Below, piece after piece: positions 4,621 to 50,558 of a DNA stretch of 64,000 nucleotides (position 1 is the stretch's first letter; each line of letters begins with the position of its first letter). The stretch lies in contig JAAEQW010000327.1 of NCBI GenBank assembly GCA_024231025.1, positions 16,022-80,021 of the forward strand. The letters are read 5' to 3'. The notes under the pieces are model-generated. The model was given only the letters and a program-made list of their open reading frames with translations. It searched no databases and had not been told where the DNA came from. The stretch comes from Candidatus Omnitrophota bacterium (GTDB lineage Bacteria; Omnitrophota; Gorgyraeia; Duberdicusellales; 4484-171). A program made the translations under genes and the position numbers.

Positions 4621-6183
4621 ATGAAGGTTTATAGTTTTCGATTTTCATTTGGCAGTCTTGCTTTGATTTCTTTGTTTTCGATAATTTTTTTATTTTCTTC
4701 ATTATCAGGGTTTACCCAGGAGGAGGGAGTTCTTCCTTCCTTAAAATTTAAAGATGCTGACATTAGTGTAGTTTTACAAGCCATCGCTCAAAAAGCAACC
4801 AAAGACGGCAAACATGTAAACATCATTATTGCCCCTGAGGTAGAAGGCCCTGTTACAGTTGATTTAAAAGATGTCAATTGGCAAACAGCTTTAGACGCAG
4901 TGCTAAAGATTTACGATTACAGTTATGAATGGGTTGGTAAGGATATTGTTATGGTCACAACTCTGGAAAGACTGGCAGAAAAGCGAGAAAAAGAAGCCTT
5001 AGCCGCTCAGCAAGAACCCCTAGAAACATTTACTTACAGACTTATTTATCTTGATGCTCATGATATAGAAACAATGATACGGCCTCAGCTCACTCCGCGT
5101 GGAAAAATTACTGTTTTAGATATCGCCAGTCAAAAAGGATGGCGAGCACGCGGCGGTTTTGACACTCAAAGCGGCGCCGGACAATTTGAAAGAGCCCAGC
5201 GAGAAACAGGCGCAAGACCCAGAACAAAAACACTAATCATTACTGACACCAAATCCAATATTCGGACTCTTCTTGATGCCATTAAGAAAATCGACATCAT
5301 GCCAAAGCAAATATTAATTGAAACTCGCTTCATGGAAGTTAACAAAGATGTTCTTCGAGATATTGGCCTTGATTACGGCACAGGCGCAACAGGCGACGGA
5401 AGTGTGCAAGGGTTTAATAGCTCAGACACAAAAGTTGGTGGAGGCACCATTTCCAGCGATGGAGTTGCCCCTTCTATTTTTAATGCTCGGTCGTCAATCA
5501 ACGGAAGCAGTCCGTACGGTTCAGGATTAGAATTTGTTTTCAGAAAGCTTAATGGCACTGAGTTCCAGATTGCACTACACGCCCTTGAGGAAGATGTACA
5601 CACCAACACTCTTTCTGCTCCGCGAGTTCTAACTTTAGACGGTCAAGAAGCTTACATCATGGTTGGCGAAAAACGCCCGATCATCGAATCAAGTATCAGT
5701 TCAAGCGAAACAACTGTCGCGATAAACAAAAATTTGGGTTACTACCAGAATTTGGGAATCGAACTTAATGTTGTTCCTCAAATTTGTGGAGATAATTTTG
5801 TAAATATGGTAATTTACCCATCAGTAACATCTTCTTCGTCAGATGTAACCGCAAGATCGCAAATTGGCGATAGCTATTCTGACGACGACTACCCAATCAT
5901 TACAGTACGAGAAACTCAAACTCAAGTTTTAATGAAAGACGGAGAAACGATCTCTATCGGTGGTCTCTTAAAAGATGTAAAAAGTGAAAGCGTCTATAAA
6001 GTTCCTTTTTTAAGCAGCATTCCTTTTTTCGGAAAACTTTTTCAGCGCGAAACAAATGATACAGAAAAAATTGATCTAATTATCTTTATTACAGTGAGAA
6101 TTATGGACCCCGCTGCTGAATTAAGGAAATCACTTGAAGAAGAAGCTCAAGCAGCAGAAGAGGCAGAAATAATCATAGAATAA
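4621..6183 (+). CDS. pilQ: Type IV pilus secretin PilQ (secretin family outer-membrane channel)
   Basis: N-terminal secretin_N-like region (DISVVLQAIAQKA...DVNWQTALDAVL). C-terminal secretin domain (ETRFMEV..., VLTLDGQEAYIMVGEKRPI, ITVRETQTQVLMKDGETISIGGL). Confidence 0.8.
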   Translation: MKVYSFRFSFGSLALISLFSIIFLFSSLSGFTQEEGVLPSLKFKDADISVVLQAIAQKATKDGKHVNIIIAPEVEGPVTVDLKDVNWQTALDAVLKIYDYSYEWVGKDIVMVTTLERLAEKREKEALAAQQEPLETFTYRLIYLDAHDIETMIRPQLTPRGKITVLDIASQKGWRARGGFDTQSGAGQFERAQRETGARPRTKTLIITDTKSNIRTLLDAIKKIDIMPKQILIETRFMEVNKDVLRDIGLDYGTGATGDGSVQGFNSSDTKVGGGTISSDGVAPSIFNARSSINGSSPYGSGLEFVFRKLNGTEFQIALHALEEDVHTNTLSAPRVLTLDGQEAYIMVGEKRPIIESSISSSETTVAINKNLGYYQNLGIELNVVPQICGDNFVNMVIYPSVTSSSSDVTARSQIGDSYSDDDYPIITVRETQTQVLMKDGETISIGGLLKDVKSESVYKVPFLSSIPFFGKLFQRETNDTEKIDLIIFITVRIMDPAAELRKSLEEEAQAAEEAEIIIE

Positions 6184-31500: not shown

Positions 31501-34500
31501 CTAGCCGTGGTCTTTGAGTCAACTTTTTTTCTAATCGCTTCTGCTTCAGACAAAAGTAAAACTTCTTCAGCACGGCTTAACTTAAAATCAGAAAGAAGCG
31601 CTTTTCCTTGCAAATCATATGTCACCTCTGATCGATAGCGACTAAGGATATTCTCTACTTTTTTGTCGCGCTTTTGAAAAAACTCACCACTTACAATAAA
31701 CCGATTATCCCGCTTTCCATCCTCACTGATCTGGCCAAACCCCAAATCCGCCCCTTGCTTGATTTGCCAAAGCGGTTGAAAAACTGCCTCGATTGCTTTT
31801 CTTGGTATTCCTTTGGCACTATTTTTAGCGCAATCCATCATTGAAAATAAACCATTACGAAACAATTCAAGTTCAATCGCAACTTGCGCGGTTAACTCTT
31901 TTTCTTTATCGGCAAGCTTTTCGGCTTTTTCGTGATACGTTTTAATAGCGGCAACGTCTTCTTCTTGGCGAATATACTTGCCCTGGACATCATAGTTTTT
32001 TGCGCGAGCACGGAATTCAGTAATTTCATGAGTAATTTGCGCAGCAGTTACTCCTTCATGAACATAAACACGCCTGCGTTCTCTTCCAAGATGGCCGTGA
32101 TGCTTAGTGTCTTTTTTATCTTTGTATAAATAGCCTTGGCCTTTGGTGTCAAGGATAACAACTTCAACATCGCCAATTTCGGTCGGAATTGTAAAATCAA
32201 TATTGATTGGCAAATCCTGATCCGGTGCAATTCTTTCGTCCCCCTCAACCTTCACCCGTAACTCTTGGATTTTATCTTTCAGCCCTTTGCCTTGCAGTTC
32301 CGGTCGCTGGGCAATAAACTCAAAAATCTCTTTATGGAAAGGTGCCTGTTGGGCGATGCCTTCGGTGGAGATTGCGCCAACTGATTCGATTTTTTGCAAG
32401 TGCAATTGAGGTTGGAAATCAATCGTAGCAAGGGTTTTTGGAAGTTTACCCGGTAACACAATGTTCAGCCTCTGCGCCAAGAACAAGTTAAGCGCTCTGG
32501 CGCGTTCGCGGCGAGCCTCTTTCATTTGTTTTTTTCCATTATAAGAAAAAGAGTCTTTTTTACCATTGAGAAAATCAAATTTCATTGACGCTTCTTGAGC
32601 AGCTTCAAAAACCCTCTCTCGTGATAATAAATCTCTTTCTATCTTATCTTCGATCGCGGCAACTAAAAGAAGAAACGTCGCGCTTTCCATGCAAATATTC
32701 TCCTTGAACGTCTCGATTAAAAATAAATCTATATTTGTGTCAAAACAAAAATTATTCTTGGCAATTGTTTTCATTATTTCTGGTCGATCAAAAGTTAAAA
32801 TCAAATAAGAAAACATATCTTTTTCTTCTTCGGAAAGTGAAATAGCATTAGTTTTTGTTTCCGCACGATATTGCTTCATAAACTGAGGCATTATCATTTT
32901 TATTTCCTCATAATTTATTGCCTGTCTGTCTAGTCCAAAAAGAGACCCGATATCTTCTTGTGTCCATCCTAAAATTCTTAACTTTAAGACTACTCTTCTT
33001 CTGCCTGGCTTTACCCTGGCTAAAACGCGAAACATCTGTCTAGCCCTCTCCCAAAGCATTACATCACCAAAAGGAGACAAATTTCTCGAAGGCACTAAAT
33101 CTTTACGAGTTAGCGCTGTTTCTTCGCTAATTGAAGCGTCTAGCGGAACCGCCGAAGAATACATCTTTTCAACGGCAACAACCTGCTCTGCTGTGACTTT
33201 GCTTTCTTTCGCAACTTGCTCTATTGTTGCTTTTGCACCTAAGCCTTTTCTTGCATTTTTTATGGCATAGATTTTGTCGGTGTGCTTTCTATTAACCGGA
33301 CCGCCTTGTTCATCAAAAGCATTTCTCATTTTTCCATTGGTTGATCGCTTTATAAAACTGGCAAATAGGGCTTCACCGTTTGGGTCAAATTTCTTTTTTC
33401 GCATCACCCGTAATACTTCTAGCTCGCCTACAGCAGCTAGATCATCAATATGAGTTAATTCCAAGTTAATTTTTCGCGCACGCCATATAAGCAATTTTTT
33501 CAGCGAACTAATTACACACGCCTCGATTTCTTTTTTGAGACGATTATCTGCAGTTGAATAATATACAGTAAAAAGAATTTGCTCTTCTTCTCTGTTTAAA
33601 GCTTCTCTAAGATAGGCCTCATTGGGATGATCCGAGGTTTTGCGATCGGCGAGAATTTGTTCGGCTTTCGTGCGCAGGCGCATGTTTCCTTTGCTTTTCT
33701 CATCTGATGCGCCTACTGCACCCCCTGTATGTGCACCTCCAAAATTTTTTGTGCCCGAAGTAGTAGGAAATTTTAAAGTAAATGTAGTCCCTTTGCCAAG
33801 GGCACTTTCGATTTCGATTTTTCCTCCGACATTGTCCATTACCTTTTTAACAAAATAAAGGCCCATCCCTGTGCCGCCAAGGCGCCCGGTAAAACCTTTT
33901 TCAAATAACAAACTATAAATATCTCCGTCGCTTGCCTTTTTGCCTTTGGCTACTATTCTTTGTATTCTTTCTAAAACATCTTTCTCGATTTTATGCACAG
34001 AAACTTCGGACTCGTTATCGGTGGAAATTATTTCTTGGGCTTTCTCTAATATTTTTTCTTTATCAATCCCCACACCAGAGTCGCTTATCCGCACTATCTG
34101 ATGCACTTGCCCAGCTTCGGTTTGGCTCTCAATGGTTACAGCGACTTCTTTAACGTGAGCTGCCTGCTGAGCGTTGATAAACAAATTAAGCATCATAATG
34201 ATAAAGCTATTCGGACTCACCGCAATAATCGATTCTTTGTCGTTATCTTTTTTAAGATTAACCTCTAGTCCAATTCCGGCAACCATCTCAGCTGCCAAGT
34301 CAACTAACGGCGCCAACACTGCATATCCAAGTTGTTTTTGCCTAAGCTCAGAAACAAATTTTCTAAATCGTTTAAGCGAAACAATCGCCTGACGATTTCG
34401 TTTAGTGTTAACAATCTCCCCTCTGGTCAATCCAAGTTCCTTTAAAAATTCTTTCGGCACCCTTTGTTTATATTGTGATGCCCTTTTATGAAGACCAATC

Positions 34501-36434
34501 GCTTCAGACAAAATCTCTTCAATCAAAACAAAAAGCTTTGCGGTTAAATCCCCGCGTTTCTCCAGCGAAGCCGTCTGGGTCAAATTCTGCGTTGCTACCC
34601 ATAATCCGCTAAGCTGCATCCTTTCTTTTACTAGTTGCTTTCCTGCATCATCGTGCTCAAACACTTCGTTGTAATAATCAATTGCCTTAAACACAACCGT
34701 CATCGTGTTTGCAATAAGATGAGTAAAGTCCCGCATTTTTATAAGCTCACTTGAGATATAGCCGCTATTTTCTCTATTCTGTGTTGTTCCTTCTATTTGT
34801 TTAAGAATTTCTCTTTTCACGCGTATGTACCATATTTGCTTTTGAATTTCCTCGGGACGCTCTTTGCTGATCGCTTCTTGTATGTTCCTGAAATTCTCTT
34901 CAAAAAACGGCTGATTGCGCCTAACGATGTCGGCCCTTGATAGATTTCTGATTACACTGCTTTGGCGAGAATAAGCTGAAGTAAAAGTTACAGTTCCAAA
35001 AAAGCTTTCATCGGGTATATTTTCAAGTATAGTTTTTAAGAATACCGACTTGGCAGTTGTTCTGCCAGAAGTCTTTTTCCCCTCGATGTTTAGCGCACCT
35101 AGCTCAGCGGTCATTTTAACTGGTTTTGGCACCTGTTTGTCACCTGAAACAACTTCTACTGTTTCGGCAATTTCACTGGCAAAAAATCCGCCGGAAAAAT
35201 ACTTACGATTAACGTGTTTATTTAGAATTTCGTCAAAATCCCTTCGAATATAGTTGTACACACCTTTTTTGTAGGCCTCTAGGTACTGATTATAAATTTT
35301 TTCTTTTATTTGGGGGTCCGTGCCTTCAATACCTTTGGTTTTGTTTTTACCGATATATATTTTGTCTAATAGGTGTGTGGTTAATTCGTCTTCCGGGGAC
35401 ACGTACCGTTCTCGGCCTTCGGCCTGCGCTTTCGGTACATGTCCCCGTAGGCTGTCAACTGAACGGCGAAGCCGTTGCTTAAACCAGGTTGCAAGAATCA
35501 AGGCATCGTAAATTTGGCGTAGGTAAGCGAACTGTTTACCATTGTTTATTTCCTCTTCGATCATCGGAAGGATAATCTCTTTCGCGATTTGGAATGATAT
35601 ATTGCTAGAGGGCACGGCACGCCGTGCCCCTACGATATTTAAAATAGGGACTGTCCCCTCTTCTGCCAGGGATTGATCTTTGGTCGGCGCCTGTCCCTCC
35701 CCTACGAATTGGTCTATGGTCTCTGGTCTATGGTCTCTGGTCTGATTACGTTGCTGTGCAACGTAATCTTCCTCCATCATCACTTTGAGATGATTATCAC
35801 CCAGAGTTGCCCTATCTCCTTGTTCATACACAATTGCTCTCTCAGGTACAATCCAAATTTTGTTAAAAGTGTTGATCGCAACATTGCTTGTGCCATAAAG
35901 CTGGTACGCTTTGTTGTGCACTTTTTTCCAGAATTGTTTTCCCAATGGGTTATCTGGATAAGTTAAAGAAGCCAGAAGCTGCTTTAGGATGTAGTCTTCC
36001 CCTAGAAGATCTTTACCCATATCAGTTAAACCTAGTCCATGAGCAACAACCGTATCCTTCTCATAAGGCGAAAGGTTAACCCAGAAATCTTCTTCGGGAA
36101 TGGTTAACGCAGATAAAAAGTATTTTATTAACCTTTGGCCCTCTGTTCTCAATTCTTTATCGCTATGGTTTGAATCGCCTTCACTTAATATGAAGTCAAA
36201 TTTGAATGGGTTGTCGGCGTAAAGCTTAATCCCCTTTAAGGATAAAGGGTTATATCTAGCGGTCAAGCCAATCAATTCTGTTGGCGCAGGCATATATGGC
36301 AGTGCTGAGGCATAGCCTGCTGAGTCTTTTGCCAAATAAACCCCAATGGTTGAGGCTATAAAGGCAGCCAGAATAAAGAATGCTACCATCCTAAACGGAG
36401 CACTAGCTCGTTTCTTACATAAATATAGGGTCAT
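28530..36434 (-). CDS. Giant (2634 aa) membrane-anchored multidomain protein. It carries the N-terminal domain shared with two paralogs, two sigma-70-like modules, an HATPase_c domain, an internal 120-aa duplication, and a class I SAM methyltransferase-like domain.
   Basis: N-terminal transmembrane helix. Conserved WVNLSPYEKD domain. FTTYSHIKMQKEMVNFL and FASFIKRSTNGKMRNAF region-2-like segments and HTH region-4-like segments. HATPase G-box GGTGMGLYFVKK (~33750-34150). Methyltransferase motifs VLCIGVGRG and LKPNGVAFV (~28950-29460). Confidence 0.7.
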   Translation of the reverse strand: MTLYLCKKRASAPFRMVAFFILAAFIASTIGVYLAKDSAGYASALPYMPAPTELIGLTARYNPLSLKGIKLYADNPFKFDFILSEGDSNHSDKELRTEGQRLIKYFLSALTIPEEDFWVNLSPYEKDTVVAHGLGLTDMGKDLLGEDYILKQLLASLTYPDNPLGKQFWKKVHNKAYQLYGTSNVAINTFNKIWIVPERAIVYEQGDRATLGDNHLKVMMEEDYVAQQRNQTRDHRPETIDQFVGEGQAPTKDQSLAEEGTVPILNIVGARRAVPSSNISFQIAKEIILPMIEEEINNGKQFAYLRQIYDALILATWFKQRLRRSVDSLRGHVPKAQAEGRERYVSPEDELTTHLLDKIYIGKNKTKGIEGTDPQIKEKIYNQYLEAYKKGVYNYIRRDFDEILNKHVNRKYFSGGFFASEIAETVEVVSGDKQVPKPVKMTAELGALNIEGKKTSGRTTAKSVFLKTILENIPDESFFGTVTFTSAYSRQSSVIRNLSRADIVRRNQPFFEENFRNIQEAISKERPEEIQKQIWYIRVKREILKQIEGTTQNRENSGYISSELIKMRDFTHLIANTMTVVFKAIDYYNEVFEHDDAGKQLVKERMQLSGLWVATQNLTQTASLEKRGDLTAKLFVLIEEILSEAIGLHKRASQYKQRVPKEFLKELGLTRGEIVNTKRNRQAIVSLKRFRKFVSELRQKQLGYAVLAPLVDLAAEMVAGIGLEVNLKKDNDKESIIAVSPNSFIIMMLNLFINAQQAAHVKEVAVTIESQTEAGQVHQIVRISDSGVGIDKEKILEKAQEIISTDNESEVSVHKIEKDVLERIQRIVAKGKKASDGDIYSLLFEKGFTGRLGGTGMGLYFVKKVMDNVGGKIEIESALGKGTTFTLKFPTTSGTKNFGGAHTGGAVGASDEKSKGNMRLRTKAEQILADRKTSDHPNEAYLREALNREEEQILFTVYYSTADNRLKKEIEACVISSLKKLLIWRARKINLELTHIDDLAAVGELEVLRVMRKKKFDPNGEALFASFIKRSTNGKMRNAFDEQGGPVNRKHTDKIYAIKNARKGLGAKATIEQVAKESKVTAEQVVAVEKMYSSAVPLDASISEETALTRKDLVPSRNLSPFGDVMLWERARQMFRVLARVKPGRRRVVLKLRILGWTQEDIGSLFGLDRQAINYEEIKMIMPQFMKQYRAETKTNAISLSEEEKDMFSYLILTFDRPEIMKTIAKNNFCFDTNIDLFLIETFKENICMESATFLLLVAAIEDKIERDLLSRERVFEAAQEASMKFDFLNGKKDSFSYNGKKQMKEARRERARALNLFLAQRLNIVLPGKLPKTLATIDFQPQLHLQKIESVGAISTEGIAQQAPFHKEIFEFIAQRPELQGKGLKDKIQELRVKVEGDERIAPDQDLPINIDFTIPTEIGDVEVVILDTKGQGYLYKDKKDTKHHGHLGRERRRVYVHEGVTAAQITHEITEFRARAKNYDVQGKYIRQEEDVAAIKTYHEKAEKLADKEKELTAQVAIELELFRNGLFSMMDCAKNSAKGIPRKAIEAVFQPLWQIKQGADLGFGQISEDGKRDNRFIVSGEFFQKRDKKVENILSRYRSEVTYDLQGKALLSDFKLSRAEEVLLLSEAEAIRKKVDSKTTARYGRIKECVVGGHLRWAAQTAGIFADQGKNRHIVKEELIAAANLGLSIAVDKIDWRKGVLFTTYSHIKMQKEMVNFLLHCSLYALKMPEHFRRLSHDTEAAQKKILQRLREGGDYRRPTLEEIAQEINTDPPATLKEKIKHLKEFRSFFPALSFETLVGERKGVVHKERFRPKVSSPVEIHEILLNQQYSSKLLARLTIQERVVLKLHYGKGVSRQVLQEIGTNGSKEECEIPSARIAKEYFYSTREGVRKIKVRAIKKLNNIYRDQNEEENISVSHEIGDPDFGIYLIAEQRLGITSPFFPGFFSALTEKIHANLVSGQVNALLQRKGSIERILDGLNYLETRKEILEKIKDKNERKKFIQAYEDLVLLLLVRTFDLTIPIAQPQKQEVTKRQNRIEELKEDESFINLTFSREEIEGMLNWRQHPQIKKELVATEKIIYYPAARKIPDFGEVMPFAAAGSDLIEQANILVPAQSYAISDQGIAQQAPFHKEIFRLIAQRPEVQSKMYQERIIELRELVAGGKSSWLPQDDLKLKPDIIVSTEEIGEVRIIVLDTEGRGYLYKDKKGVCHQEHTGRRRKIVYVHDGASAQTIAHGIAELIVRRGSYADEGSAAIFEYDKAAQQHLSTSRGQALIERCRPGIKRVQALLKLEQPIYREENVGRGLDSFIEDFQNDITVGISPYLNRAQNVLCIGVGRGKIVYDLLSRYKHLNSVSAISKENYLHSAESLKAVIDEQAAETKGVGQLSLEQAHKFVEKMQRGHITADVSYGLPYKDRSFEVVFLGPAVATYLQNKVFVLEEIKRVLKPNGVAFVDLAGLSLQHNEDLGDFFSSKGGEFEHHELSVKGGPSLLIIRNYDPDNIDLGLKLVKQREFSLRTMPGVVVHNEEYQPVFDQEKLTERKKAYEAQVKEIYVRSSSKASTKAAGIVGAHSKGIPGGIDFNPNKLNIDVQGEGINNFIPNAVEFDINDFGGFTFEIISIERQRNRDLAFCD
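29715..30075 (-). repeat. Intragenic duplicated module, copy 2 (GIAQQAPFHKEIF...YLYKDKK...YVHDGA), within the giant gene
   Basis: Protein-level repeat of ~120 aa. The DNA retains a near-identical 50-nt stretch (ctttatggaaaggtgcctgttgggc...) at 30020-30075 and 32328-32385. Confidence 0.7.
32025..32385 (-). repeat. Intragenic duplicated module, copy 1
   Basis: Same ~120-aa module as 29715-30075. Confidence 0.7.
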
Positions 36435-36550
36435 TTTGTCTTACAGCCCGAATAAAGGGCTTTTTTGGCCGGCCACGGTCAGCATGTCATATTAAGGTAT
36501 CACATAAAGATAACATTTTTTTAGACAAAAAACCACCTAATTTCATATTA

Positions 36551-36604
36551 AGGAGACGCTGTCGGCAACCCCTTCCCATGCAAGAACTTATAAAACAAAT
36601 ATTT
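36551..36604 (-). promoter_or_regulatory. Conserved 54-nt leader element upstream of giant gene 1 (aggagacgctgtcg...cttataaaacaaatattt)
   Basis: About 85% identical to 40973-41026, which lies upstream of giant gene 2. It sits 117-170 nt upstream of the start codon. Confidence 0.5.
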
Positions 36605-36685
36605 AATTGGTAAGATACAAAAAGAAAGGCATGAAAACTAATTTACCCATGCACACCGCGTAGGTGTACATGGGTTTTGAGTTAT

Positions 36686-39600
36686 TTAATCTAGTAGCGG
36701 TCTAATTGATTTAATATCACGAATACCGAGAACTTTAATCCCCGCATTATTAAAAAATTCCGGATTAATATTGAAAGTTTTACCCATCCAGTCTTCAGAA
36801 GATCCTGTTACATTTAAAGCATTGTCTAAGCCTTCAATTTTTACACCACCGTGGGCACTGCTAAGACCTGCGGAGCTTCTTCGTGTTGATCCGCCACTAC
36901 CATTATTGAGAAGCCCTGAACCTTGTTTTGTCCCAGAAGGCCCTTGACCTCCACCATTGAAAGGATCACCTGGATCATCATCGCTAGAAAGAACACCGCC
37001 AATTTGATCAGCATCAACCGCAACGAAGCGCGAATCTTTACGCATCGACAGCTCGTGCAGCCGCGCTTCAGCCCTCGCCTGGACCTCGCTGTCCTCCTTG
37101 GCAAAAGCATTTTCTGCAACAATCACTCGCGAAAAATCTGTTCCTAACAGTTCATACAACTCAATTAAAATTGACCCTCGCACGTATGTTCCGTTGGCTT
37201 CCTCTCCAAAGCGCTTTGAGTCCTCCCCAATATCATATCCCAGCACGTGATCATAGCGGCTTTCGGCGTTCATGTCTAGCGCTAAGAATATTCCTTCACA
37301 CCCTAGTGTATCATCCATTGCGTCTTGCAACGCGCTAACAACATCATAAAGTTTAGACCGCTTTGTATTGTCCAGCGCAACTAACGTTTTCTGGGCCGTA
37401 GCAGCCGCAACCTCTAACCCTTTAACTGATGCCTCAACGCTAGAGTAGCCTGCGGCAACCAAAGAAATTTCATTAACTGCCAATCCCGGAAAATCACTCT
37501 GAGCCTGCTGCGGAGAAAGAGCCAAGGTAGTATAGACATTTTGTGCGGCTGGCGAAGCAGAACGCCCTTGCGATAAGTCGCTATTGCCATAGACATATGT
37601 TAAAACCTTTTCCCGCTCCCAAACTGTGGCTTCTATTGTTTGTAGCACCCCCCCTGGTTTAGTAGCTAAATCAATAATTTGATCGGCTCGATTAACTTGA
37701 TCGGCTTGATCGCCTCGATCAGCTTTTTTGTTAGCATAGGTGTACTCACGCAATTCAGGGGCATTACCTGAGGCACGCATATGGAACCGATCGCCATAAC
37801 TGTCCCACATTACGATCCCATCAATAAGATGATCGCCAAAGGCCAAATGAACAATTTCTCCAAAACCCAATCCTGCGTGATAAAAATTTTCCATCTTTTT
37901 GCGTAAATTAATCGCATCAGCAACAAGTTCGTCCTGGTCATCATAAGAAACGGTGGAAGAATCATCTTCTCCCCGTAAGATAACAGTCATTGTTCTGTCG
38001 GCATCATTAAACATAACCTCGGAAACATTGTGACGATGTAAACTATATTCCTCATGAATAAGCTGCCCCGTACGCTTTTCTCCCGGTAAAACTGGTAGTT
38101 CGTGGATCAATCCTGCATTATCTTCGTAATTGTCAAGCTCTCCAACAAAAAATTCTGAAACATTTTTGTTATGTTTTATTGCCTCTAAAAAAATAATCAT
38201 CGGCGTTGGCAGTGCGTCGCGGGTGATTAGTTCATCTAACGGCTGACCATTGGGTAATATTATGTTGGGCCCAATAAAAATCCCGCCGTTAACCTCCTGA
38301 CCAATGACCTTAAGGTTCGGGTTCTTGCGCAACATCCATCGCATTAAATATTTATGGTAGGGTGAACCGACCGAACAGTGTTTCACCACAATACCGTCTT
38401 TTGCTAACTGATCATCAACGTCTTGATTTCCGGTTAGCGATTGGACAACAGCATCCACTTTCAGGGCCCGCGCCACCGGCACGATTGTTACGTCGCCGCG
38501 CCAAAATATGCCATTTTCATCAATCACCATCGAGCGATCACCATCGCCGTCAGCCGAAGTTTCACCCAGCAAAATAACGTCCTCACCGTCAACCCTAATC
38601 ACGGTTTTGCCTTCTACCTCACGAGCACCATAGTCTTTCTTAACCGTGCGCATATCCTTTTTGATGTCAGCCAAATGCTCTTTAGTCATGTTTTCGGTAT
38701 CTAAAGCAATGAAAGAGTTTGATCGGCGACGCCGCTCAATAACTTTCATCCCTAAGGCTCGATAAATATCCACATGCTCTTGAACTGCTACCGTTGAATG
38801 GCCCCAATAAACAACGGCATACCCTTTAAAAGGTTGAGGGTTGTCCGCAGTTGAAAAAGCATCAACAAAGCGCTGAATATAAATTTTCTTAGCCTCATCA
38901 TTAACTTTGATCGCATTAATGTCTACGTTGGCTCCCGGCTTAAATAGGCCCCTAACTCCAAAAATAGAATCCGTCGCCGCCTGCTTGTAAAGAACTTCTC
39001 GTCGGGCTTTAACCGCAGCGATAATACCCTCTTTATCGGAAACGCCATCGTCTTTTTCTTCGGCCTCATTAAGCACCTCACCATCTTTACTATAAAGCTT
39101 TAATCCGTTAAATTTACCTGCCGTGTGACTTCCGGTAATCATGATCCCCGGCAAATTATATTTCTGACAATAGTAGGCCATAATTGGCGTTGATACCTCA
39201 TCTAGAAAATCAACTTCTACCCCTAAATCACGACAAGCAGTGGCTATCGCATTAGCAAACACTGGCGAGCTTCTGCGAAAATCCATAGCTAACACCATCT
39301 TCTGACCGGGAACTATCGCTCCATTATTATCAACCGCTAATTGCGCTTTGCTCACTAGCCAGTCAGAAAAACCACTGGTTATGGCATAAGGCTCAATGTC
39401 CTTCATCACATCTACCAGCCCACGAAAACCACTCGTGCCCATGCCGGTCGGCTTTGGAGTATAGTCCATTTCTTGAAGCAAACAACCGGGAGGATACACT
39501 GCGGGATCAAGCTCCTGATCAGAAAAGCTTTTGCGATCAATCTCAGCGGCTAAAGTAACTCGCTGCACGCGCTGCTCAAAAGGTATTTCTAAGCTTGGAT

Positions 39601-40813
39601 TAGCTATCATTTGTGCTCCCGGAAAAATATATTCTCCTTCAGACCCGTCACTACCGCTAGGTCCATCATTTGGTGGCCCGTCATCTGGATTCGAAATCAT
39701 CGTAGAATCAGCTACTTGCGCATTACCTTCAAAAGAAACAGCCGCAAGATCCTCCGCTATTACAGGAACTGCGTCGCTTATTTCTGGCAAATCCTCTTGA
39801 GTGTATCCACCAGAGAAATAACGCCGTTTGATTCTTCTATTTGTTGCTGGGTCAACCTCTTTTTTGATATAATCATACAGTTTTCCCTCAAACGCCTCAA
39901 CATAAAGATTATAAACCTTTTGTTTAATTTCCTTATCAGAAATCGCGATTCCATCAACTTTTGCCTGATTAATAAAGTGCTTATAAAAAGAATCTTGAAA
40001 CTTCTTTTTAAACCACGTAGCCAATACCATCGAATGGTATATTTGACGCAAAGTTGCAAAGTTTTTTCCTTGGTTTATTTCGTTATTAATTTTCGGTAAA
40101 ATTACCTGGCGCAGAGCATTGGAGGTTATCTCGTCTACTTCATCTGTCCGATCAATGCCTGTAGCATTTTTGCGAGCAAGAAAGTCTTCTTCCAATACCG
40201 CTTTTAGTTGTGCGTCGTTGATTAAAGCAACGTTTTCGTGCTCATAAACTTCAGCTGTATACGGAGTGATCCAAATTTTATTAAATGTGTTTATCGAAAC
40301 TTTTGTTGTTCCAAGGGTGTCGGTTAAGTCTTGATAAATTTTATCCCAATAATTTTTTCCGGCTTGACTATCAGGGCAAGTAATTGACGCCGATAGCTGT
40401 TTTAAAATATAATCCTGAGAAAGCAAGTCACGCCCTAGGTCAGTTGCGCTTAATTCATCTGGAAGAATTCGATTTTGCTCATATGGCGATAAGTTAACCC
40501 AAATATCCTTCTCGGCCATGGTAAGGCCAGCAAGAAAATAATTAATCAAACGCTTTGCGTCTTTTTCACTTATCTTCTCCTTGCTTCCGGTGTCAATAAT
40601 GAATTCAATATGCAAAGGGTTTTCGTAATCCAATCGCAAACCTTTTAGTACCGGAAAGGAGTAATTCTCCGACAACGGCACCATTGTTTGAGGACCAGGC
40701 AAGTCAAGAGTGTTTGCAAAAGTGACGAAAGGCGTTTGAATTAAAAGGGATACGACAAAAAAGAAAAGAGTTACGAAATTCAACTTAACGGATTGAGTGC
40801 GTAAATGCACCAT
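36686..40813 (-). CDS. Giant (1375 aa) secreted paralog with the conserved N-terminal domain, a phosphohexomutase-like domain and a Gly-rich C-terminus
   Basis: Signal peptide. N-terminal domain shared with the 2634- and 1084-aa proteins. GTSGFRG and TGSHTAGKFNGLKLY resemble the PGM/PMM GTSGLR and TASHNP motifs (~38800-39450). Confidence 0.65.
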   Translation of the reverse strand: MVHLRTQSVKLNFVTLFFFVVSLLIQTPFVTFANTLDLPGPQTMVPLSENYSFPVLKGLRLDYENPLHIEFIIDTGSKEKISEKDAKRLINYFLAGLTMAEKDIWVNLSPYEQNRILPDELSATDLGRDLLSQDYILKQLSASITCPDSQAGKNYWDKIYQDLTDTLGTTKVSINTFNKIWITPYTAEVYEHENVALINDAQLKAVLEEDFLARKNATGIDRTDEVDEITSNALRQVILPKINNEINQGKNFATLRQIYHSMVLATWFKKKFQDSFYKHFINQAKVDGIAISDKEIKQKVYNLYVEAFEGKLYDYIKKEVDPATNRRIKRRYFSGGYTQEDLPEISDAVPVIAEDLAAVSFEGNAQVADSTMISNPDDGPPNDGPSGSDGSEGEYIFPGAQMIANPSLEIPFEQRVQRVTLAAEIDRKSFSDQELDPAVYPPGCLLQEMDYTPKPTGMGTSGFRGLVDVMKDIEPYAITSGFSDWLVSKAQLAVDNNGAIVPGQKMVLAMDFRRSSPVFANAIATACRDLGVEVDFLDEVSTPIMAYYCQKYNLPGIMITGSHTAGKFNGLKLYSKDGEVLNEAEEKDDGVSDKEGIIAAVKARREVLYKQAATDSIFGVRGLFKPGANVDINAIKVNDEAKKIYIQRFVDAFSTADNPQPFKGYAVVYWGHSTVAVQEHVDIYRALGMKVIERRRRSNSFIALDTENMTKEHLADIKKDMRTVKKDYGAREVEGKTVIRVDGEDVILLGETSADGDGDRSMVIDENGIFWRGDVTIVPVARALKVDAVVQSLTGNQDVDDQLAKDGIVVKHCSVGSPYHKYLMRWMLRKNPNLKVIGQEVNGGIFIGPNIILPNGQPLDELITRDALPTPMIIFLEAIKHNKNVSEFFVGELDNYEDNAGLIHELPVLPGEKRTGQLIHEEYSLHRHNVSEVMFNDADRTMTVILRGEDDSSTVSYDDQDELVADAINLRKKMENFYHAGLGFGEIVHLAFGDHLIDGIVMWDSYGDRFHMRASGNAPELREYTYANKKADRGDQADQVNRADQIIDLATKPGGVLQTIEATVWEREKVLTYVYGNSDLSQGRSASPAAQNVYTTLALSPQQAQSDFPGLAVNEISLVAAGYSSVEASVKGLEVAAATAQKTLVALDNTKRSKLYDVVSALQDAMDDTLGCEGIFLALDMNAESRYDHVLGYDIGEDSKRFGEEANGTYVRGSILIELYELLGTDFSRVIVAENAFAKEDSEVQARAEARLHELSMRKDSRFVAVDADQIGGVLSSDDDPGDPFNGGGQGPSGTKQGSGLLNNGSGGSTRRSSAGLSSAHGGVKIEGLDNALNVTGSSEDWMGKTFNINPEFFNNAGIKVLGIRDIKSIRPLLD

Positions 40814-45948: not shown

Positions 45949-46533
45949 CTAAGATTTCTTACTGCTACCATAGCGAGATAGGATTTCTTCTAAAGATTTT
46001 TCTTTTGATATCTCAAGCAGCTTTGCAAACACCTTAGCTGTAACCAAGGCATCTTCTAAGGCACGATGAAAATTTTGTGGACATTCTATATTGAAAAATT
46101 TCACAACTGTTTCTAAATTATACTTTTGCGATTTAATAAGACACCGAGCCATGGTTAGGACATCAATTACCGGCCCACTCCAGGGAGCATACATCATCCT
46201 GCCCAATTCACTATTAATGAAGCCCGCATCAAAAGGTGCGTTGTAGGCACAAATCACACCTCCTTCAAGAAACTCAAGCAAATTTTCCGCGATGTCTTTA
46301 AAAAATGGCGCGTCTTTGACATCTTCGTTGGAAATTTTGTGAATCTTATAAACATGATAAGGAATTTCCTGCCCTGGATTAACCAAGCACTGAAACTTGT
46401 CCACCACCTCATGGTTTCTCACCTTTACTGCACCAATTTCACAAATGGCTTCTCCGGCAGCGGCGCTTAACCCGGTTGTTTCCACATCAAGAAAAACTAA
46501 ATCATATTCATTTATGTTTTTTGTTAAGTTCAT
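45949..46533 (-). CDS. DnaQ-like 3'-5' exonuclease (DEDDh family)
   Basis: Exo I motif FLDVETTGL, plus downstream Exo II and Exo III motifs (H...D). Confidence 0.75.
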   Translation of the reverse strand: MNLTKNINEYDLVFLDVETTGLSAAAGEAICEIGAVKVRNHEVVDKFQCLVNPGQEIPYHVYKIHKISNEDVKDAPFFKDIAENLLEFLEGGVICAYNAPFDAGFINSELGRMMYAPWSGPVIDVLTMARCLIKSQKYNLETVVKFFNIECPQNFHRALEDALVTAKVFAKLLEISKEKSLEEILSRYGSSKKS

Positions 46534-46566
46534 CGGTATTTCTCCTGGACTTGTCTACTTGCCAAT

Positions 46567-47106
46567 ATGCTTATCTCATATATTCAGGTTATTATAGGCA
46601 ATTTACGGACCCGCCACAAGAAAAAGTTTAATTGTTATAAGACAAATGGAATTATCAATTATTGGGATGATGTCCCAAACCAATATAATAATATCGAAAG
46701 GGGTCAATATATTATCACGCCTAACCATGTTCATGGAATTATAAATATCGTAGGGGTCGACCTATGTGTCGACCCGGATAAAAATAAAATATCAAATGAC
46801 GATCATAAAATAAATCATAACGGGCGGACACAGGGGTCCGCCCCTACAATATTATCATTGTCTAATATAATCCAACGTTTAAAAACATTAACCACAAAAA
46901 AATATATTGATGGTATCAAAAATAATAATTGGTCACCATTTGCCAAACGTCTCTGGCAACGTGATTATCATGACCATATTATTCGCAACAAAACATCATT
47001 AAACAAAATACGTGAATATATAACCAATAATCCCATAAATTGGCAATTTGATGTTGAAAATCCTGACAGAGTTGGTAAGATGGAATCAGATACAATTACC
47101 GCATAA
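46567..47106 (+). CDS. REP-associated tyrosine transposase-like (IS200/COG1943-type HuH Y1 transposase), carrying an in-frame GTAG-palindrome pair
   Basis: HuH motif NHVHGII. Catalytic-Tyr region LWQRDYHDHIIRNKTSLNKIREYITNNP. Confidence 0.55.
   Translation: MLISYIQVIIGNLRTRHKKKFNCYKTNGIINYWDDVPNQYNNIERGQYIITPNHVHGIINIVGVDLCVDPDKNKISNDDHKINHNGRTQGSAPTILSLSNIIQRLKTLTTKKYIDGIKNNNWSPFAKRLWQRDYHDHIIRNKTSLNKIREYITNNPINWQFDVENPDRVGKMESDTITA
46750..46847. repeat. Pair of inverted REP-like hairpins (GTAG + GC-rich palindrome ... palindrome + CTAC) embedded in-frame in RAYT-like gene 1
   Basis: gtaggggtcgacctatgtgtcgaccc at 46750-46775 and gggcggacacaggggtccgcccctac at 46822-46847. The 5' GTAG is the E. 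coli REP hallmark recognised by RAYT proteins. Confidence 0.7.
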
Positions 47107-47160
47107 CAACGCAATCCAGCGGACGCTGCTTCGCATCGCCACTGATCTCGGATGTTATGT
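47101..47160. repeat. Structured intergenic palindromic repeat (REP-like), copy 1 (cataacaa...tgttatg)
   Basis: Outer inverted repeat cataaca/tgttatg around a GC-rich core. One of six related copies between genes of the 46.5-50.5 kb island. Confidence 0.65.
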
Positions 47161-47168
47161 AAAAAATT

Positions 47169-47561
47169 ATGAAAAATAAAATTCTAATCACTACATTGTT
47201 TCTCTTATTTTCAATTTCTTCATCGGCATTTTCCGAACAGATTAATCCTGAAAAATTCATAATTGATCTAATTAAAGCCGCTCAGGATAATAATTTAAAA
47301 GAAATTGAGGCTTATGCTGATCTTAAAATGATAGCATCGCATCCTCGTCATTCAATGGAACCAAAAGAATTTATTGAATTTCTTAAAGGTATTGATTTAG
47401 AAAGAATCGAATTTCAAAAATTAGTTAACCGTGGAATAGAAAAAGGAAGAATCCTGGTGAGAATTTTAAAACCTATTAGTTGCGATTTTGAATTAGAAGT
47501 ACAGCCGGATTCAACAACAGAAATAGGAACAAAAATACGGGTTGTTGACGTTCATCCGTGA
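47169..47561 (+). CDS. Hypothetical secreted protein (signal peptide)
   Basis: N-terminal hydrophobic signal ILITTLFLLFSISSSAF. Flanked by REP-like repeats. Confidence 0.4.
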   Translation: MKNKILITTLFLLFSISSSAFSEQINPEKFIIDLIKAAQDNNLKEIEAYADLKMIASHPRHSMEPKEFIEFLKGIDLERIEFQKLVNRGIEKGRILVRILKPISCDFELEVQPDSTTEIGTKIRVVDVHP

Positions 47562-47569
47562 ACAAAAAA

Positions 47570-47643
47570 CATAACAAGGCACTGCAGCTGACCCTACTAC
47601 GCCCCTTCGGGGCTTCGAAGGACAGCTGAGTTTGAATGTTATG
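47570..47643. repeat. REP-like structured repeat, copy 2, with a UUCG-tetraloop hairpin (gccccttcggggc)
   Basis: cataacaaggcactgcagctgacc...ggacagctgagtttgaatgttatg. Confidence 0.7.
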
Positions 47644-48364
47644 TGAAAAAAATAAAATGATTAACGAACTATTTAAATCTTCTTTAACAGGGCCACTATC
47701 TTACAAAATTTTCTCCTTTGTATTGATCGCTGCGATCTTTATTTGGATCTTTTGGGGAAATAAAATTGCCCAAAAACAAGAGGCGAGAAAAAATCAAAAA
47801 GCCGAACAAGCTGAGCAGATTAAACAACGCCCTTGGGTTGATGTGGACTTTGAAATAATGACCCCCCTTTCTTATGACAACAAAGAATGGGATGCTGGAA
47901 CACGCTGGCATGTGACTATAAAATATCGTTTAGAAAATGTCGGGAAAACACCTGCAAACAAAGCTTCTTTTATGGCAAAAATGATTCCATTGACTTCTAG
48001 CGTAAACGTTACTCAGGAATTTGATGCCCTTTACAAGTATCAACAACAACTAGCTAAGCATAATATGGGTTTCGGACAAACTCTTTTTCCAGAAAAAAAG
48101 CGCATTGTTAAATTTGTCTTGAATGGGAATCCAAGAATTTTTGACGAAATTAAAAAAAATCCAAGTGGCTATGCTGGGCATTTTCTTGTTATTGTTTGTG
48201 CAACCTATAATTCAACTTATAATAACGAGTTATTCCACACAGCAAAAGCGTTTCAACTATTCAAGCGTTCTGGAAATAAATTCATAGATCCAAATGGGGA
48301 AACCATTCCTGTAAAGGATCTCGCAATTGTACCGCATCCTATACAAGGGAGCCGTGCAGAATAA
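47636..48364 (+). CDS. Hypothetical membrane protein
   Basis: One N-terminal transmembrane helix (IFSFVLIAAIFIWIFW). No recognised domains. Confidence 0.4.
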   Translation: MLCEKNKMINELFKSSLTGPLSYKIFSFVLIAAIFIWIFWGNKIAQKQEARKNQKAEQAEQIKQRPWVDVDFEIMTPLSYDNKEWDAGTRWHVTIKYRLENVGKTPANKASFMAKMIPLTSSVNVTQEFDALYKYQQQLAKHNMGFGQTLFPEKKRIVKFVLNGNPRIFDEIKKNPSGYAGHFLVIVCATYNSTYNNELFHTAKAFQLFKRSGNKFIDPNGETIPVKDLAIVPHPIQGSRAE

Positions 48365-48391
48365 GGTAAATCTAATTGAATATTAAAAACA

Positions 48392-48455
48392 CATAACAAA
48401 TCACTGCACCTGACCAAAAAGCTGCGCTTTTCGGCAGGTGAGTTCTGATGTTATG
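48392..48455. repeat. REP-like structured repeat, copy 3
   Basis: cataacaaatcactgcacctgacc...ggcaggtgagttctgatgttatg. Confidence 0.65.
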
Positions 48456-48484
48456 ATATACAAAAACAAGGACAAGGAGAACAA

Positions 48485-49327
48485 GTGAAAAAAACAAATT
48501 TAACAGCCGTCGCCTTTCTTTTGCTTTTTGCTGTGGCATTATTTTCTTTCGCTGAAACAAAAACAGAAGAACAATTATCTTTAAGCAAAGCACAATCTTT
48601 TTTAACGCAACAGGCTTTTGATAAAGCAATTGAACAATTTCAAAAAGTCTTATCATTAAATCCACAAAACGATCAAGCTCTTTTTAGCATGGCCTTTTTA
48701 TCCTTTCAGCTGCACCAAGACTATGATAAATCTCTTTATTATGCGAGCAAGGTTTCTGATAATTTTAAAAACAAATATCTTGCAAACATTATTGCAGGCC
48801 ATTGCTTAGCAGCAAAAGGCAAAACCGATGAAGCTATATCAAACTTTGAAATAGCCTTAAAAACGGATCCTGACGATGAGGACTCCTTGATGCTTTTAGG
48901 AACTTTATATTTTAGCGAGAAAGGAAACCCTGCAAAAGCAAAACATTACTTTGAGAGACTTCTACAAGTTTCGCCAAACCATGAAGATGCTCTTTTAGGT
49001 TTAGGCTTGGCTGCACAATCCGACAATCAAACAATAAAATATATGGAAAAACTAATAGAAATAAACCCAAATCATCCTGACGCATACGCAACATTAGCAA
49101 CCTCATATGGAAATAAGGGGGACTTTGACACAGCAATCACAAACTATAAAAAAGCTATAAAACTATCTCCTAACGATCCCTATAACTATCAAGGCTTAGG
49201 GCTATGCTACAAGGATAAAGGAAACTCTGAAAAGGCTCTAGAATTTCTTAAGAAAGCAGCAGAAATAAATACTGATAGCAACGTTGCAAAAGAAATTGAA
49301 GCAGAAATTGAGAAGTTAAAAAAATAA
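48485..49327 (+). CDS. TPR-repeat protein with a signal peptide
   Basis: Multiple TPR repeats (AxxxLGxxYxxxGxxxxA pattern) after an N-terminal signal sequence. Confidence 0.7.
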   Translation: MKKTNLTAVAFLLLFAVALFSFAETKTEEQLSLSKAQSFLTQQAFDKAIEQFQKVLSLNPQNDQALFSMAFLSFQLHQDYDKSLYYASKVSDNFKNKYLANIIAGHCLAAKGKTDEAISNFEIALKTDPDDEDSLMLLGTLYFSEKGNPAKAKHYFERLLQVSPNHEDALLGLGLAAQSDNQTIKYMEKLIEINPNHPDAYATLATSYGNKGDFDTAITNYKKAIKLSPNDPYNYQGLGLCYKDKGNSEKALEFLKKAAEINTDSNVAKEIEAEIEKLKK

Positions 49328-49330
49328 AAT

Positions 49331-49392
49331 CATAACAAGGCACTTCAGCTGACCAAAACCTGCGGTTTCGGCAGCTGAGTTTGAATGTTATA
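49331..49392. repeat. REP-like structured repeat, copy 4
   Basis: cataacaaggcacttcagctgacc...ggcagctgagtttgaatgttata. Confidence 0.65.
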
Positions 49393-49399
49393 ACAGATA

Positions 49400-49795
49400 A
49401 TGAAAACAAAATATAAATTCACTTTTTGGGGTATAATCTTCATTTTGTTTGGAACCTTTGGCTTTTTGGCAAACACTCTTTGTTGTTATTTCTATTTCTT
49501 CGAGAAACAACTACCTACCGGCAAAATGGGATCTTTTTTAAGCTTTATGTGTGCACCATCCACTCATCTGTCTTTATCTTCTGCTTGGCCAAGTCCTTGG
49601 AGTATGTGCACATTAATGGTTGCTACTACTTTAATATTTTCCTTATTTATTTGGATAGGATTATTTTCATTAAAAAAAGATGGCTCACATTTAAAGGCAG
49701 ATATGAATCCTGAATTAAAGCAAGCTCTTGAAAATAATGATTTTGAAAAAGCGGCTTTATTGCGTGACCAAGCAAAAAGAAAACAAGACATCTAA
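49400..49795 (+). CDS. Hypothetical membrane protein
   Basis: Two or three hydrophobic segments. The 3' end overlaps the next ORF, so the boundaries are uncertain. Confidence 0.3.
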   Translation: MKTKYKFTFWGIIFILFGTFGFLANTLCCYFYFFEKQLPTGKMGSFLSFMCAPSTHLSLSSAWPSPWSMCTLMVATTLIFSLFIWIGLFSLKKDGSHLKADMNPELKQALENNDFEKAALLRDQAKRKQDI

Positions 49796-50342
49796 CAAAT
49801 CACTACAGCTGACTAAAACCTGCAGTTTTGTGCAAGTGATTAAGGAAAATATATTTGGTGAAATAAAAAATAATGGGATATCCGTAGGGGCCGACGGCTG
49901 TCGGCCCTCTATAGATGTAAAATTAAATGAATTTGGTTTAATTGTTAATGACGAATTAAAAAATTCTGAAATTATTCGAAACGAAATAAAATTGAACGAT
50001 CATGTAATTATGCCAAATCATATACATGGAATTGTTATAATTCAAAATAATATCATAAAGGGCCGACAGCCATCGGCCCCTACGGATAAAATTAATCAAA
50101 AACAATCATTATCATTATTTGTCGCCGGTTTTAAATCCTCGGTAACAAAACGCATCAACACCTTACGTAATACACCAGGGAATCCTGTTTGGCAAAGATC
50201 GTTTTATGACCATATTATCCGCAACAAAACATCATTAAACAAAATACGTGAATATATAACCAATAATCCCATAAATTGGCAATTTGATGTTGAAAATCCT
50301 GACAGAATTGGTAAGATGAAATCAGATACAATTACCGTATAA
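49728..50342 (+). CDS. REP-associated tyrosine transposase-like, second copy, with an embedded GTAG-palindrome pair flanking the HuH-coding segment
   Basis: HuH motif NHIHGIV. Catalytic-Tyr region WQRSFYDHIIRNKTSLNKIREYITNNPINWQF. The C-terminal 45 aa is nearly identical to the first copy. The true start is probably downstream of 49728. Confidence 0.55.
   Translation: MKIMILKKRLYCVTKQKENKTSNKSLQLTKTCSFVQVIKENIFGEIKNNGISVGADGCRPSIDVKLNEFGLIVNDELKNSEIIRNEIKLNDHVIMPNHIHGIVIIQNNIIKGRQPSAPTDKINQKQSLSLFVAGFKSSVTKRINTLRNTPGNPVWQRSFYDHIIRNKTSLNKIREYITNNPINWQFDVENPDRIGKMKSDTITV
49792..49850. repeat. REP-like structured repeat, copy 5 (partial), lying inside the 5' part of the second RAYT ORF call
   Basis: ctaacaaatcactacagctgactaaaacctgcag... 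Confidence 0.5.
49876..50083. repeat. 24-bp terminal inverted GTAG-palindromes flanking a 160-bp AT-rich segment that encodes the HuH motif of RAYT-like gene 2
   Basis: gtaggggccgacggctgtcggccc at 49876-49899 and gggccgacagccatcggcccctac at 50060-50083. The two are reverse complements with one mismatch. Confidence 0.7.
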
Positions 50343-50465
50343 CAACGCACTGCCACGTGAGCCCTTCGGGCAACGTGGCCTACGTCCCGCAAAAACGGGA
50401 CTGCGGCAGCCGAAGTCGCGTTTGACAACAAAGTTGTCATCACGCGATGAGTTTGAGTGTCATAC
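50338..50465. repeat. REP-like structured repeat, copy 6 (long, multi-hairpin; a UUCG tetraloop gcccttcgggc inside the stem ccacgtg/cacgtgg)
   Basis: tataacaacgcactgccacgtgagcccttcgggcaacgtgg...gtcccgcaaaaacgggac...gcgtttgacaacaaagttgtcatcacgc. Confidence 0.65.
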
Positions 50466-50558
50466 CCAATAAAAACAAATTTGATAAATGTCAGATTTAA
50501 CAACCAGAGGTCGGGAGATTAAAGAGTCAGGTTGGCAAGTTGTAACCCTTTTGTTATC

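Follow-up and report, generated by a model that had tools for sequence, protein, structure and literature searches.

A probable integrase-less integron cassette array with RAYT-like genes in a Candidatus Omnitrophota chromosome

The integron integrase, IntI, acts on the folded bottom strand of attC sites, whose outer boxes follow the consensus RYYYAAC and GTTRRRY, and it cleaves between the G and the TT of the R' box; in the canonical layout the intI gene is divergent from the sites. Each attC is made up of R'', L'', L' and R' repeats with an unpaired central spacer, extrahelical bases and a variable terminal structure, is 57-141 bp in length, and has only three conserved nucleotides, which lie at the cleavage point (PMC5371416). 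Where at least two attC sites are found on one strand, with neighbours no more than 4 kb apart and no intI nearby, they are classed as a cluster of attC sites lacking an integrase (CALIN), and one proposed origin of such clusters is the integration of cassettes at a secondary chromosomal site (PMC4889954). The subject here is an island in a 64 kb stretch of Candidatus Omnitrophota DNA (contig JAAEQW010000327.1; the whole stretch is referred to as the window). The island, at 46534-50558, consists of six co-oriented open reading frames (ORFs) on the + strand with a palindrome 3' of each, and two of the ORFs resemble REP-associated tyrosine transposases (RAYTs; REP, repetitive extragenic palindrome). 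A sequence-only reading had taken the palindromes for REP-like elements. From comparison with integrase-linked sites they are identified here as integron attC sites, and the island is considered, with a probability of roughly 0.88, to be an integrase-less integron cassette array (CALIN) inserted in the chromosome, with the RAYT-like genes as cargo.

The island is of typical size for a CALIN with its five to six sites, and as in the CALINs described by Cury et al. 2016 (PMC4889954) most of the cargo has no known function and resistance genes are absent. It differs from known CALINs in its Omnitrophota host, its two RAYT-like cassettes, one half-deleted attC, and a terminal attC with a GTC R' box. 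The cassettes also resemble the isolated cassettes described as attG/SALIN insertions (Loot et al., bioRxiv 10.1101/2022.09.11.507474) in lying inside a housekeeping cluster and off any integron platform, but those are single cassettes whereas the island is a six-unit array; a single RAYT-like cassette in an attG/SALIN-like position was found at one comparison locus (L121). Complete integrons from Omnitrophota and other phyla (L049, L050, L034 and L022) share with the island the site class xTAACAA-NN-CACT-N-CAsCTG-A-C ... G-CAGsTG-AGT-TTGAA-TGTTAx, a similar cassette spacing (~400-1200 bp) and arrays on one strand; in these loci a divergent TIGR02249 integrase is located 1-3 kb from the first attC, and the window has none. 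Among the papers examined on integrons in Omnitrophica or Omnitrophota, which were part of the matches retrieved, none describes attC sites there.

The other system for comparison is the REPtron, in which a RAYT is associated with REPs (E. coli TnpA-REP, structure 4ER8; Ton-Hoang 2012, Messing 2012, Quentin 2018). The catalytic residues of TnpA-REP are Y115, H59 and H61, and a 5' GTAG tag followed by a hairpin is the hallmark by which it recognises a REP (PMC3479197). The RAYT-like genes of the window have in common with this system the HuH motif, a tyrosine equivalent to Y115, and an association with GTAG hairpins. Unlike in REPtrons, however, these hairpins sit inside the ORFs and in frame rather than flanking them, and the flanking palindromes are of the attC kind. 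RAYT genes are normally single-copy and vertically inherited, whereas the window has two truncated, cassette-borne copies.

Anatomy and integrase linkage of the palindromes

The six sites are given below with their scores against the covariance model R1, which is described further on.

47101-47160, + strand: attC1, 60 nt; R1 33.7 bits, E 1.7e-7; bottom-strand fold -14.1 kcal/mol
47569-47644, + strand: attC2, 76 nt, TTCG-tipped variable terminal structure; R1 62.5 bits, E 1.2e-16; fold z-score -4.8
48391-48456, + strand: attC3, 66 nt; R1 59.6 bits, E 1e-15; fold z-score -5.7
49330-49393, + strand: attC4, 64 nt; R1 59.2 bits, E 1.4e-15
49790-49835 (palindrome to ~49845), + strand: attC5 remnant, fused to RAYT-like ORF 2; R1 13.7 bits, E 0.36; motif with one mismatch
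50337-50465, + strand: attC6, 129 nt, branched variable tip; R1 18.6 bits, E 0.01; fold z-score -5.8

The 5' motif of the palindromes, TAACAANNCACTNCANCTGAC, was matched five times in the 64 kb scanned against 0.06 expected, and all of the matches are on the + strand inside the island. A search for this motif in one genome per species returned more than 118 loci or genomes, belonging to the Omnitrophota, Desulfobacterota, Planctomycetota, Cloacimonadota, Gammaproteobacteria, Cyanobacteria and other phyla, and this spread is unlike that of a lineage-specific REP. Uniqueness of the palindromes to this locus had been proposed as a check on the REP interpretation; they are indeed not unique, but the copies are distributed as an integron site across phyla and not as a genome-specific REP.

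Homologs of IntI (41-52% identity) were detected within a few kb of the motif in ten of these loci, using tblastn with an IntI1 probe. All eight of the homologs that were tested passed the TIGR02249 'integron integrase' profile, with 382-452 bits against a cut-off of 265, and nine of the ten loci have intI in divergent orientation to the attC top strand. The sole co-oriented case is a locus from a Myxococcota metagenome-assembled genome (MAG; L007), in which intI lies at 3124-2144 on the - strand and the attC sites are also on the - strand. The 3' halves of the integrase-linked sites, CAGsTGAGTTTGAATGTTAx, match the 3' halves in the window, and this part of the site was not in the search pattern.

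Model R1 was built from eight integrase-adjacent sites of other genomes and no window sequence, and served as a substitute for the IntegronFinder attC model. With filters off, the six elements were its top six matches in the window, all on the + strand and with the scores listed above, and the remaining matches were noise. In other genomes it identified arrays that are each confined to a single strand: seven sites ~600 bp apart downstream of intI in L049, six in L050, 17 in L027 and 16 in L085. It found zero sites in 168 kb of syntenic relatives of the window, a result which doubles as the negative control for the model. In an alignment of 150 sites, which was fitted to R1 and hence leans towards the modelled structure, 95.7% of the cells of the L helix are paired and eight of its ten pairs have changed on both sides. 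The AAC/GTT pairs are conserved in 146-150 of the 150 sites across the class. The outermost R positions are often unpaired, which would be expected if cassettes exchange the part of R' that lies beyond the G|TT crossover.

The ends of attC1 to attC4 read xCATAAC...GTTATxx. When folded as bottom-strand DNA these four elements have an R stem of 6-8 bp, then an internal loop that is asymmetric, an L stem broken up by bulges and, at the apex, a stem that varies; the R''-L'' arm in the R1 alignment comprises a 3-4 nt / 5 nt spacer, 3 bp, a bulge, 6 bp, a bulged A (T on the bottom strand) and the variable tip. The differences in length between the five intact sites sit in this apical part. The bottom strand is predicted to be 0.7-4.3 kcal/mol more stable than the top strand in all five, which would lend weak support to recombination of the bottom strand. 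The R' boxes are spaced at 484, 812, 937 and 1072 bp, with one ORF per unit and all units co-oriented, and the R'' boxes of attC1 and attC6 overlap the stop codons of RAYT-like ORFs 1 and 2 respectively.

The consensus cataacaa...tgttatg and the two TTCG loops (elements 2 and 6) given in the sequence-only reading were correct. The six elements that it counted are also real, but the fifth is only a 5' half: attC5 keeps R'', L'' and part of the variable tip, its L'/R' arm is deleted, and it has no stable fold (z-score -1.3). The terminal site, attC6, has the ends GTATAAC...GTCATAC, where GTC replaces the otherwise invariant GTT (R' box 50459-50465), and this could be a hybrid junction from recombination with a non-att chromosomal site, or a point mutation.

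It was also considered whether the palindromes act mainly at the RNA level, as intrinsic terminators (a role already suggested from the sequence) or as mRNA-stabilising 3' hairpins which punctuate an operon of small genes. Their position immediately 3' of each ORF and their stable folds (z-scores -2.8 to -5.8) are what this would predict; however, there is no T-run 3' of them on the coding strand, and a terminator scan was at background, with three found against 3.3 expected and none of the three corresponding to a + strand palindrome. Furthermore, AAC/GTT ends, fixed bulge positions and linkage to integrases are properties of a DNA recombination site. A mainly RNA-level role is thus extremely improbable, and a secondary effect on transcripts may exist. 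When 45.5-51.5 kb was scanned against Rfam, there were only two matches, both below threshold and attributable to chance.

Insertion point and cassette content of the array

The six cassettes and the genes on either side of the island are as follows.

45949-46533, - strand: DnaQ-like DEDD 3'-5' exonuclease gene, left flank, chromosomal backbone; PF00929 8e-34, synteny
46567-47106, + strand: RAYT-like ORF 1, 5'-truncated and degenerate, first cassette; PF01797 26.9 bits, NF047646 45 bits
47169-47561, + strand: cassette 2 ORF, 130 aa, signal-peptide-like N-terminus, no family match
47636-48364, + strand: cassette 3 ORF, up to 242 aa, N-terminal transmembrane segment, no Pfam match
48485-49327, + strand: cassette 4 ORF, 280 aa, tetratricopeptide repeat (TPR) protein with a signal-like N-terminus; TPR_2, TPR_8 and TPR_1, E ~1e-30
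49400-49795, + strand: cassette 5 ORF, 131 aa, membrane protein with a C-terminal UVR motif; PF02151 23.7 bits
49728-50342, + strand: RAYT-like ORF 2, 5'-truncated, family part 49836-50342; PF01797 24.6 bits, NF047646 56 bits
50559-50969, - strand: yjbQ/UPF0047 gene, right flank, chromosomal backbone; PF01894 9e-32, synteny

Since the ATG listed for the cassette 3 ORF falls within the R' box of attC2, the true start may be the ATG at 47658. The other 120 attC or RAYT loci encode no homologs of the four cargo proteins beyond a general TPR resemblance, so that there is no direct evidence of sharing for these particular cassettes.

The gap between yjbQ and the dnaQ-like gene is 4,025 bp in the window and 7-170 bp in ~24 related metagenomic contigs, which keep the gene order tRNA-binding protein, yjbQ, dnaQ-like, lrp, aminotransferase (YjbQ 62-72% identical). 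Judged by this synteny, the comparison shows the island to be an insertion that splits a conserved yjbQ / dnaQ-like pair of the Candidatus Omnitrophota chromosome. The strand of the array is opposite to that of the interrupted pair. In seven of the relatives (L136, L139, L140, L143, L146, L148 and L150) there are variable insertions of 1.3-4.4 kb between the dnaQ-like gene and lrp, one gene away from the insertion point in the window. No attC sites were detected in these insertions with model R1, which argues that the gene cluster is not a general cassette hotspot; it seems rather to be a general hotspot for unrelated insertions.

Between attC6 and the stop codon of yjbQ, at 50498-50557, is a 60 nt stretch which has TAACAA at its start and TTGTTAT at its end. 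It receives no score from R1, and ~1.9 matches to TAACAA...TTGTTAT are expected in the window; the stretch may represent a seventh attC that has decayed, the site of the original insertion, or a chance match. Upstream of the island, two very large ORFs (2634 aa and 1375 aa) occupy 28530-40813 on the - strand. A promoter scan was uninformative, with 23 found against 16.5 +/- 4.1 expected. The GC skew of the window + strand is negative and most of its genes are on the - strand; if the skew has been read correctly, the attC bottom strands would tentatively be placed on the lagging-strand template, the orientation that is reported to favour folding and recombination (PMC5371416).

Searches of the 64 kb window for IntI or fragments of it were negative, also when Omnitrophota IntI queries were used at E<=10, and so there is no integrase within 46 kb upstream or 13 kb downstream of the array, which is the extent of the window. 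Five intact attC sites and one broken one lie within 3.4 kb on one strand, and as a cluster of attC sites without an integrase in the window the island falls under the definition of a CALIN.

Following established integron biology, each unit of ORF plus attC would be excised or inserted as a circle by IntI, and the array would have been assembled or inserted by IntI through the folded bottom strands, with the crossover at G|TT. The array would then comprise six cassettes, encoding in order the truncated RAYT-like protein 1, a secreted protein, a membrane protein, a TPR protein, a membrane/UVR protein, and the truncated RAYT-like protein 2. Homology to the RAYT family begins in ORF 2 directly after the broken attC5, which indicates that a single deletion removed the L'/R' arm (the 3' half) of attC5 together with the 5' end of the second RAYT-like gene. 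Cassettes 5 and 6 would be fused by this event, because attC5 has lost R'. Cassettes 2-4 would still be excisable if IntI were provided in trans, any further mobility would likewise require IntI in trans, and the terminal attC6, with GTC at the crossover, may be inert or a hybrid junction.

Several observations weigh against the identification of the island as a cassette array. The base at the first extrahelical position varies (C, A or T on the bottom strand), and PMC5371416 describes a conserved G there. The GTC at the crossover and the weak score of attC6, together with the broken attC5, mean that at least two of the units are probably no longer excisable. Both R1 and the comparison loci were seeded with the 5' motif from the window, so the independent evidence comprises the 3' half, the other sites of the arrays and the linkage to integrases. 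As the integrase is absent, recombination of these particular sites by IntI is something that we infer. Finally, the array here and another Omnitrophota array (L120) both begin with a RAYT-like gene, and in a further locus (L119) such a gene lies at the contig edge; this first position could be more than coincidence.

RAYT-like genes and their hairpins

The family to which the two RAYT-like proteins belong has 6,658 database matches, labelled 'transposase' or 'REP element-mobilizing transposase RayT', and the best match of a RAYT-like protein is 99% identical and comes from a Candidatus Omnitrophota MAG. Both ORFs score above the cut-off of PF01797 (23 bits) and below that of NF047646 REP_Tyr_transpos (80 bits), and only the C-terminal half of the profiles is matched. 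A search of the PDB with the single sequence P0020 gave no match; the family profile reached E. coli TnpA-REP (4ER8) with E 5e-5, with the HuH motifs aligned and Y115 opposite the tyrosine of REYITNNP. The sequence-only reading was therefore right to place both proteins in the RAYT/Y1-HuH family. It had also taken the conserved WQR..DHIIRN segment as the region of the catalytic tyrosine, and since Y115 aligns with the tyrosine of REYITNNP this segment is a motif adjacent to the catalytic residue.

Both copies have the HuH motif and the Y115-equivalent tyrosine but are without the 27-55 N-terminal residues of the family (RLKxYDYSxxGxYFITICS...); full-length members start ...RKxIRLKxYDYSxxGxYFITICSxNRxNIFGEI.... 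The loss is larger in ORF 1, where clear homology starts at ~46693, just before the HuH motif (ITPNHVHGI), the PF01797 match spans profile positions 60-121 only, and tblastn with P0020 aligns only from query residue 77. In ORF 2 the homology begins at KENIFGEI, so that ~27 N-terminal residues are gone, and the first 36 codons come from reading through the upstream cassette 5 and what is left of attC5; MPNHIHGIV, which is the HuH motif, and REYITNNP are retained, and the protein is 62-68% identical to full-length Omnitrophota homologs. The copies are probably inactive because the N-terminus is gone.

Three pairs of repeats are associated with these two genes.

46945-47113 and 50181-50349, + strand: 169-nt direct repeat pair
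46750-46775 (+) and 46822-46847 (-): two GTAG plus GC-hairpin (REP-like) units inside ORF 1, inverted
49879-49912 and 50055-50088: 34-nt inverted repeat pair, 94% complementary, inside ORF 2

The two RAYT-like genes are 97-98% identical over their last ~135 nt and the R'' box but 45-65% identical over the remainder, and the identity of the 3' ends suggests a patch of recent recombination or gene conversion. The same pattern would be seen if the island were a composite unit, bounded by the 169-nt direct repeats and moving by homologous recombination or by HuH-mediated processing of single-stranded DNA (ssDNA), with attC sites inherited from an earlier life as an integron. The location of RAYT-like genes at both ends of the island, and at the start of the small L120 array, would fit this. 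Against it, neither RAYT copy is full-length, the unit as a whole was not found a second time, and no target-site features were detected. As the repeats are direct and internal to the array, gene conversion between paralogous cassettes is more likely, and a composite unit is considered very unlikely.

At three other loci (L119, L120 and L121), too, the Omnitrophota homolog has an attC at its end, overlapping the stop codon, and in a fourth (L122) an attC lies directly upstream; no such attC was found with the Thermodesulfobacteriota, cyanobacterial and Scalindua members of the family. An attC subtype associated with these genes, AATCCAGCGGAC...CGCTGATTTTGG..GTTAT, is present in attC1 of the window and in L119, L121 and L122, and the recurrence of the gene with its own attC subtype indicates that the two travel jointly as a cassette. 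A RAYT-like gene is present in only two of the 118 attC-bearing loci. These comparisons argue that the RAYT-like genes are carried as cassette cargo and that the palindromes are not their targets. In the Omnitrophota chromosome CP070837.1 (L120), at 5930-6000, the 3' half of an attC (TGATTTTGGTTGTTAT) was observed upstream of a full-length RAYT-like cassette. It directly follows an EF-G-like gene (PF00009 GTP_EFTU and EFG domains), and this small integrase-less array thus starts with a partial attC, again beside a housekeeping gene. In the literature, judged by titles and abstracts, nothing relevant was found on RAYT genes carried by integron cassettes, and neither integrons nor attC are mentioned in the Y1-HuH phylogenomics paper.

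Each arm of the 34-nt pair in ORF 2 is a GTAG plus hairpin unit, and the pair brackets the segment that encodes the HuH motif. Every gene of the Omnitrophota clade has two such units, inverted within the ORF and bracketing the same segment, with stems that differ among genomes yet stay complementary, i.e. they covary. Intragenic units, part of which were judged by eye from the sequence, were seen in the window, L119-L123, L035, L204 (4271-4298 and 4600-4627) and L205 (4293-4320), and are translated in frame as VGADGCRP, GxQPSAPT, VGVNGRSPL or CRGVLQYAPT. In Stanieria (L204) the palindrome is GTAGGGGTGAACGGCCGTTCACCCCTAC and is read in frame 0 (VGVNGRSPL), with a second copy flanking the gene 42 nt 3' of the stop codon; in Scalindua it is GTAGGGGCGTATTGCAATACGCCCCTAC and is read in frame 1 (CRGVLQYAPT). 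The presence of a palindrome at the same position of the protein in different reading frames points to selection at the DNA level. Outside the island, the window has one further GTAG plus hairpin unit, GTAGGGGCACGGCGTGCCGTGCCC, at ~35604-35633 (-) inside the 2634-aa ORF (28530-36434), and this may be a dispersed REP-like copy inserted in frame. No description of REPs inside RAYT genes was found in the literature examined.

These GTAG-tagged GC hairpins appear to be the DNA partner of this RAYT family, which in turn argues that the attC palindromes are not RAYT substrates. The alternative, that the palindromes are REP/REPIN elements spread by the two flanking RAYTs, making the island REPtron-like with trapped cargo, draws on the family membership of both ORFs, their location at the two ends of the island, and the overlap of a palindrome with the stop codon of each, as also in L119, L120 and L121. 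However, the palindromes are without a 5' GTAG or CGTC tag, are 60-129 nt long in comparison to the 20-40 nt given for REPs (PMC3733652), and are all co-oriented with no inverted pairs. They have no copies elsewhere in the window, and they adjoin integron integrases in genomes without a RAYT-like gene. In addition, distant members of the family carry GTAG palindromes and not palindromes of the attC kind, and both local RAYT copies are without their N-terminus. With the attC architecture of the elements, the proposal that they are REP-like substrates of the RAYTs is not supported, and a REPtron-like origin of the island is most improbable.

Even with the island read as a cassette array, a relationship between the two systems can be imagined. 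A clade of RAYT-like genes may have turned into an integron cassette that has an attC subtype of its own joined to the stop codon and an inverted pair of in-frame GTAG hairpins around the HuH-coding segment, and two systems that both rely on ssDNA hairpins may interact: the RAYT-like protein might nick or fold attC and so mobilise arrays that have no integrase, or the hairpin pair might be a DNA-level switch or self-target. This is speculative, and we regard it as unlikely.

Significance for Omnitrophota and the RAYT family

The kind of element to which the island belongs is known, and the phylum in which it occurs here has been little studied. As a cassette array, the locus would be a store of exchangeable accessory genes, for secreted, membrane and TPR proteins among others, and not a repeat system driven by a transposase. 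It would also provide an example of a cassette array that splits a conserved cluster of housekeeping genes. The attC class to which its sites belong is common to many phyla and could be used for mining cassettes from metagenomes. For work on HuH nucleases and REPINs there are two modest leads, namely the occurrence of RAYT-like genes as cassettes and the GTAG palindromes, conserved at the DNA level, inside RAYT-like ORFs. With this locus the Omnitrophota, which are poorly known and uncultivated, would join the lineages with integron cassettes.

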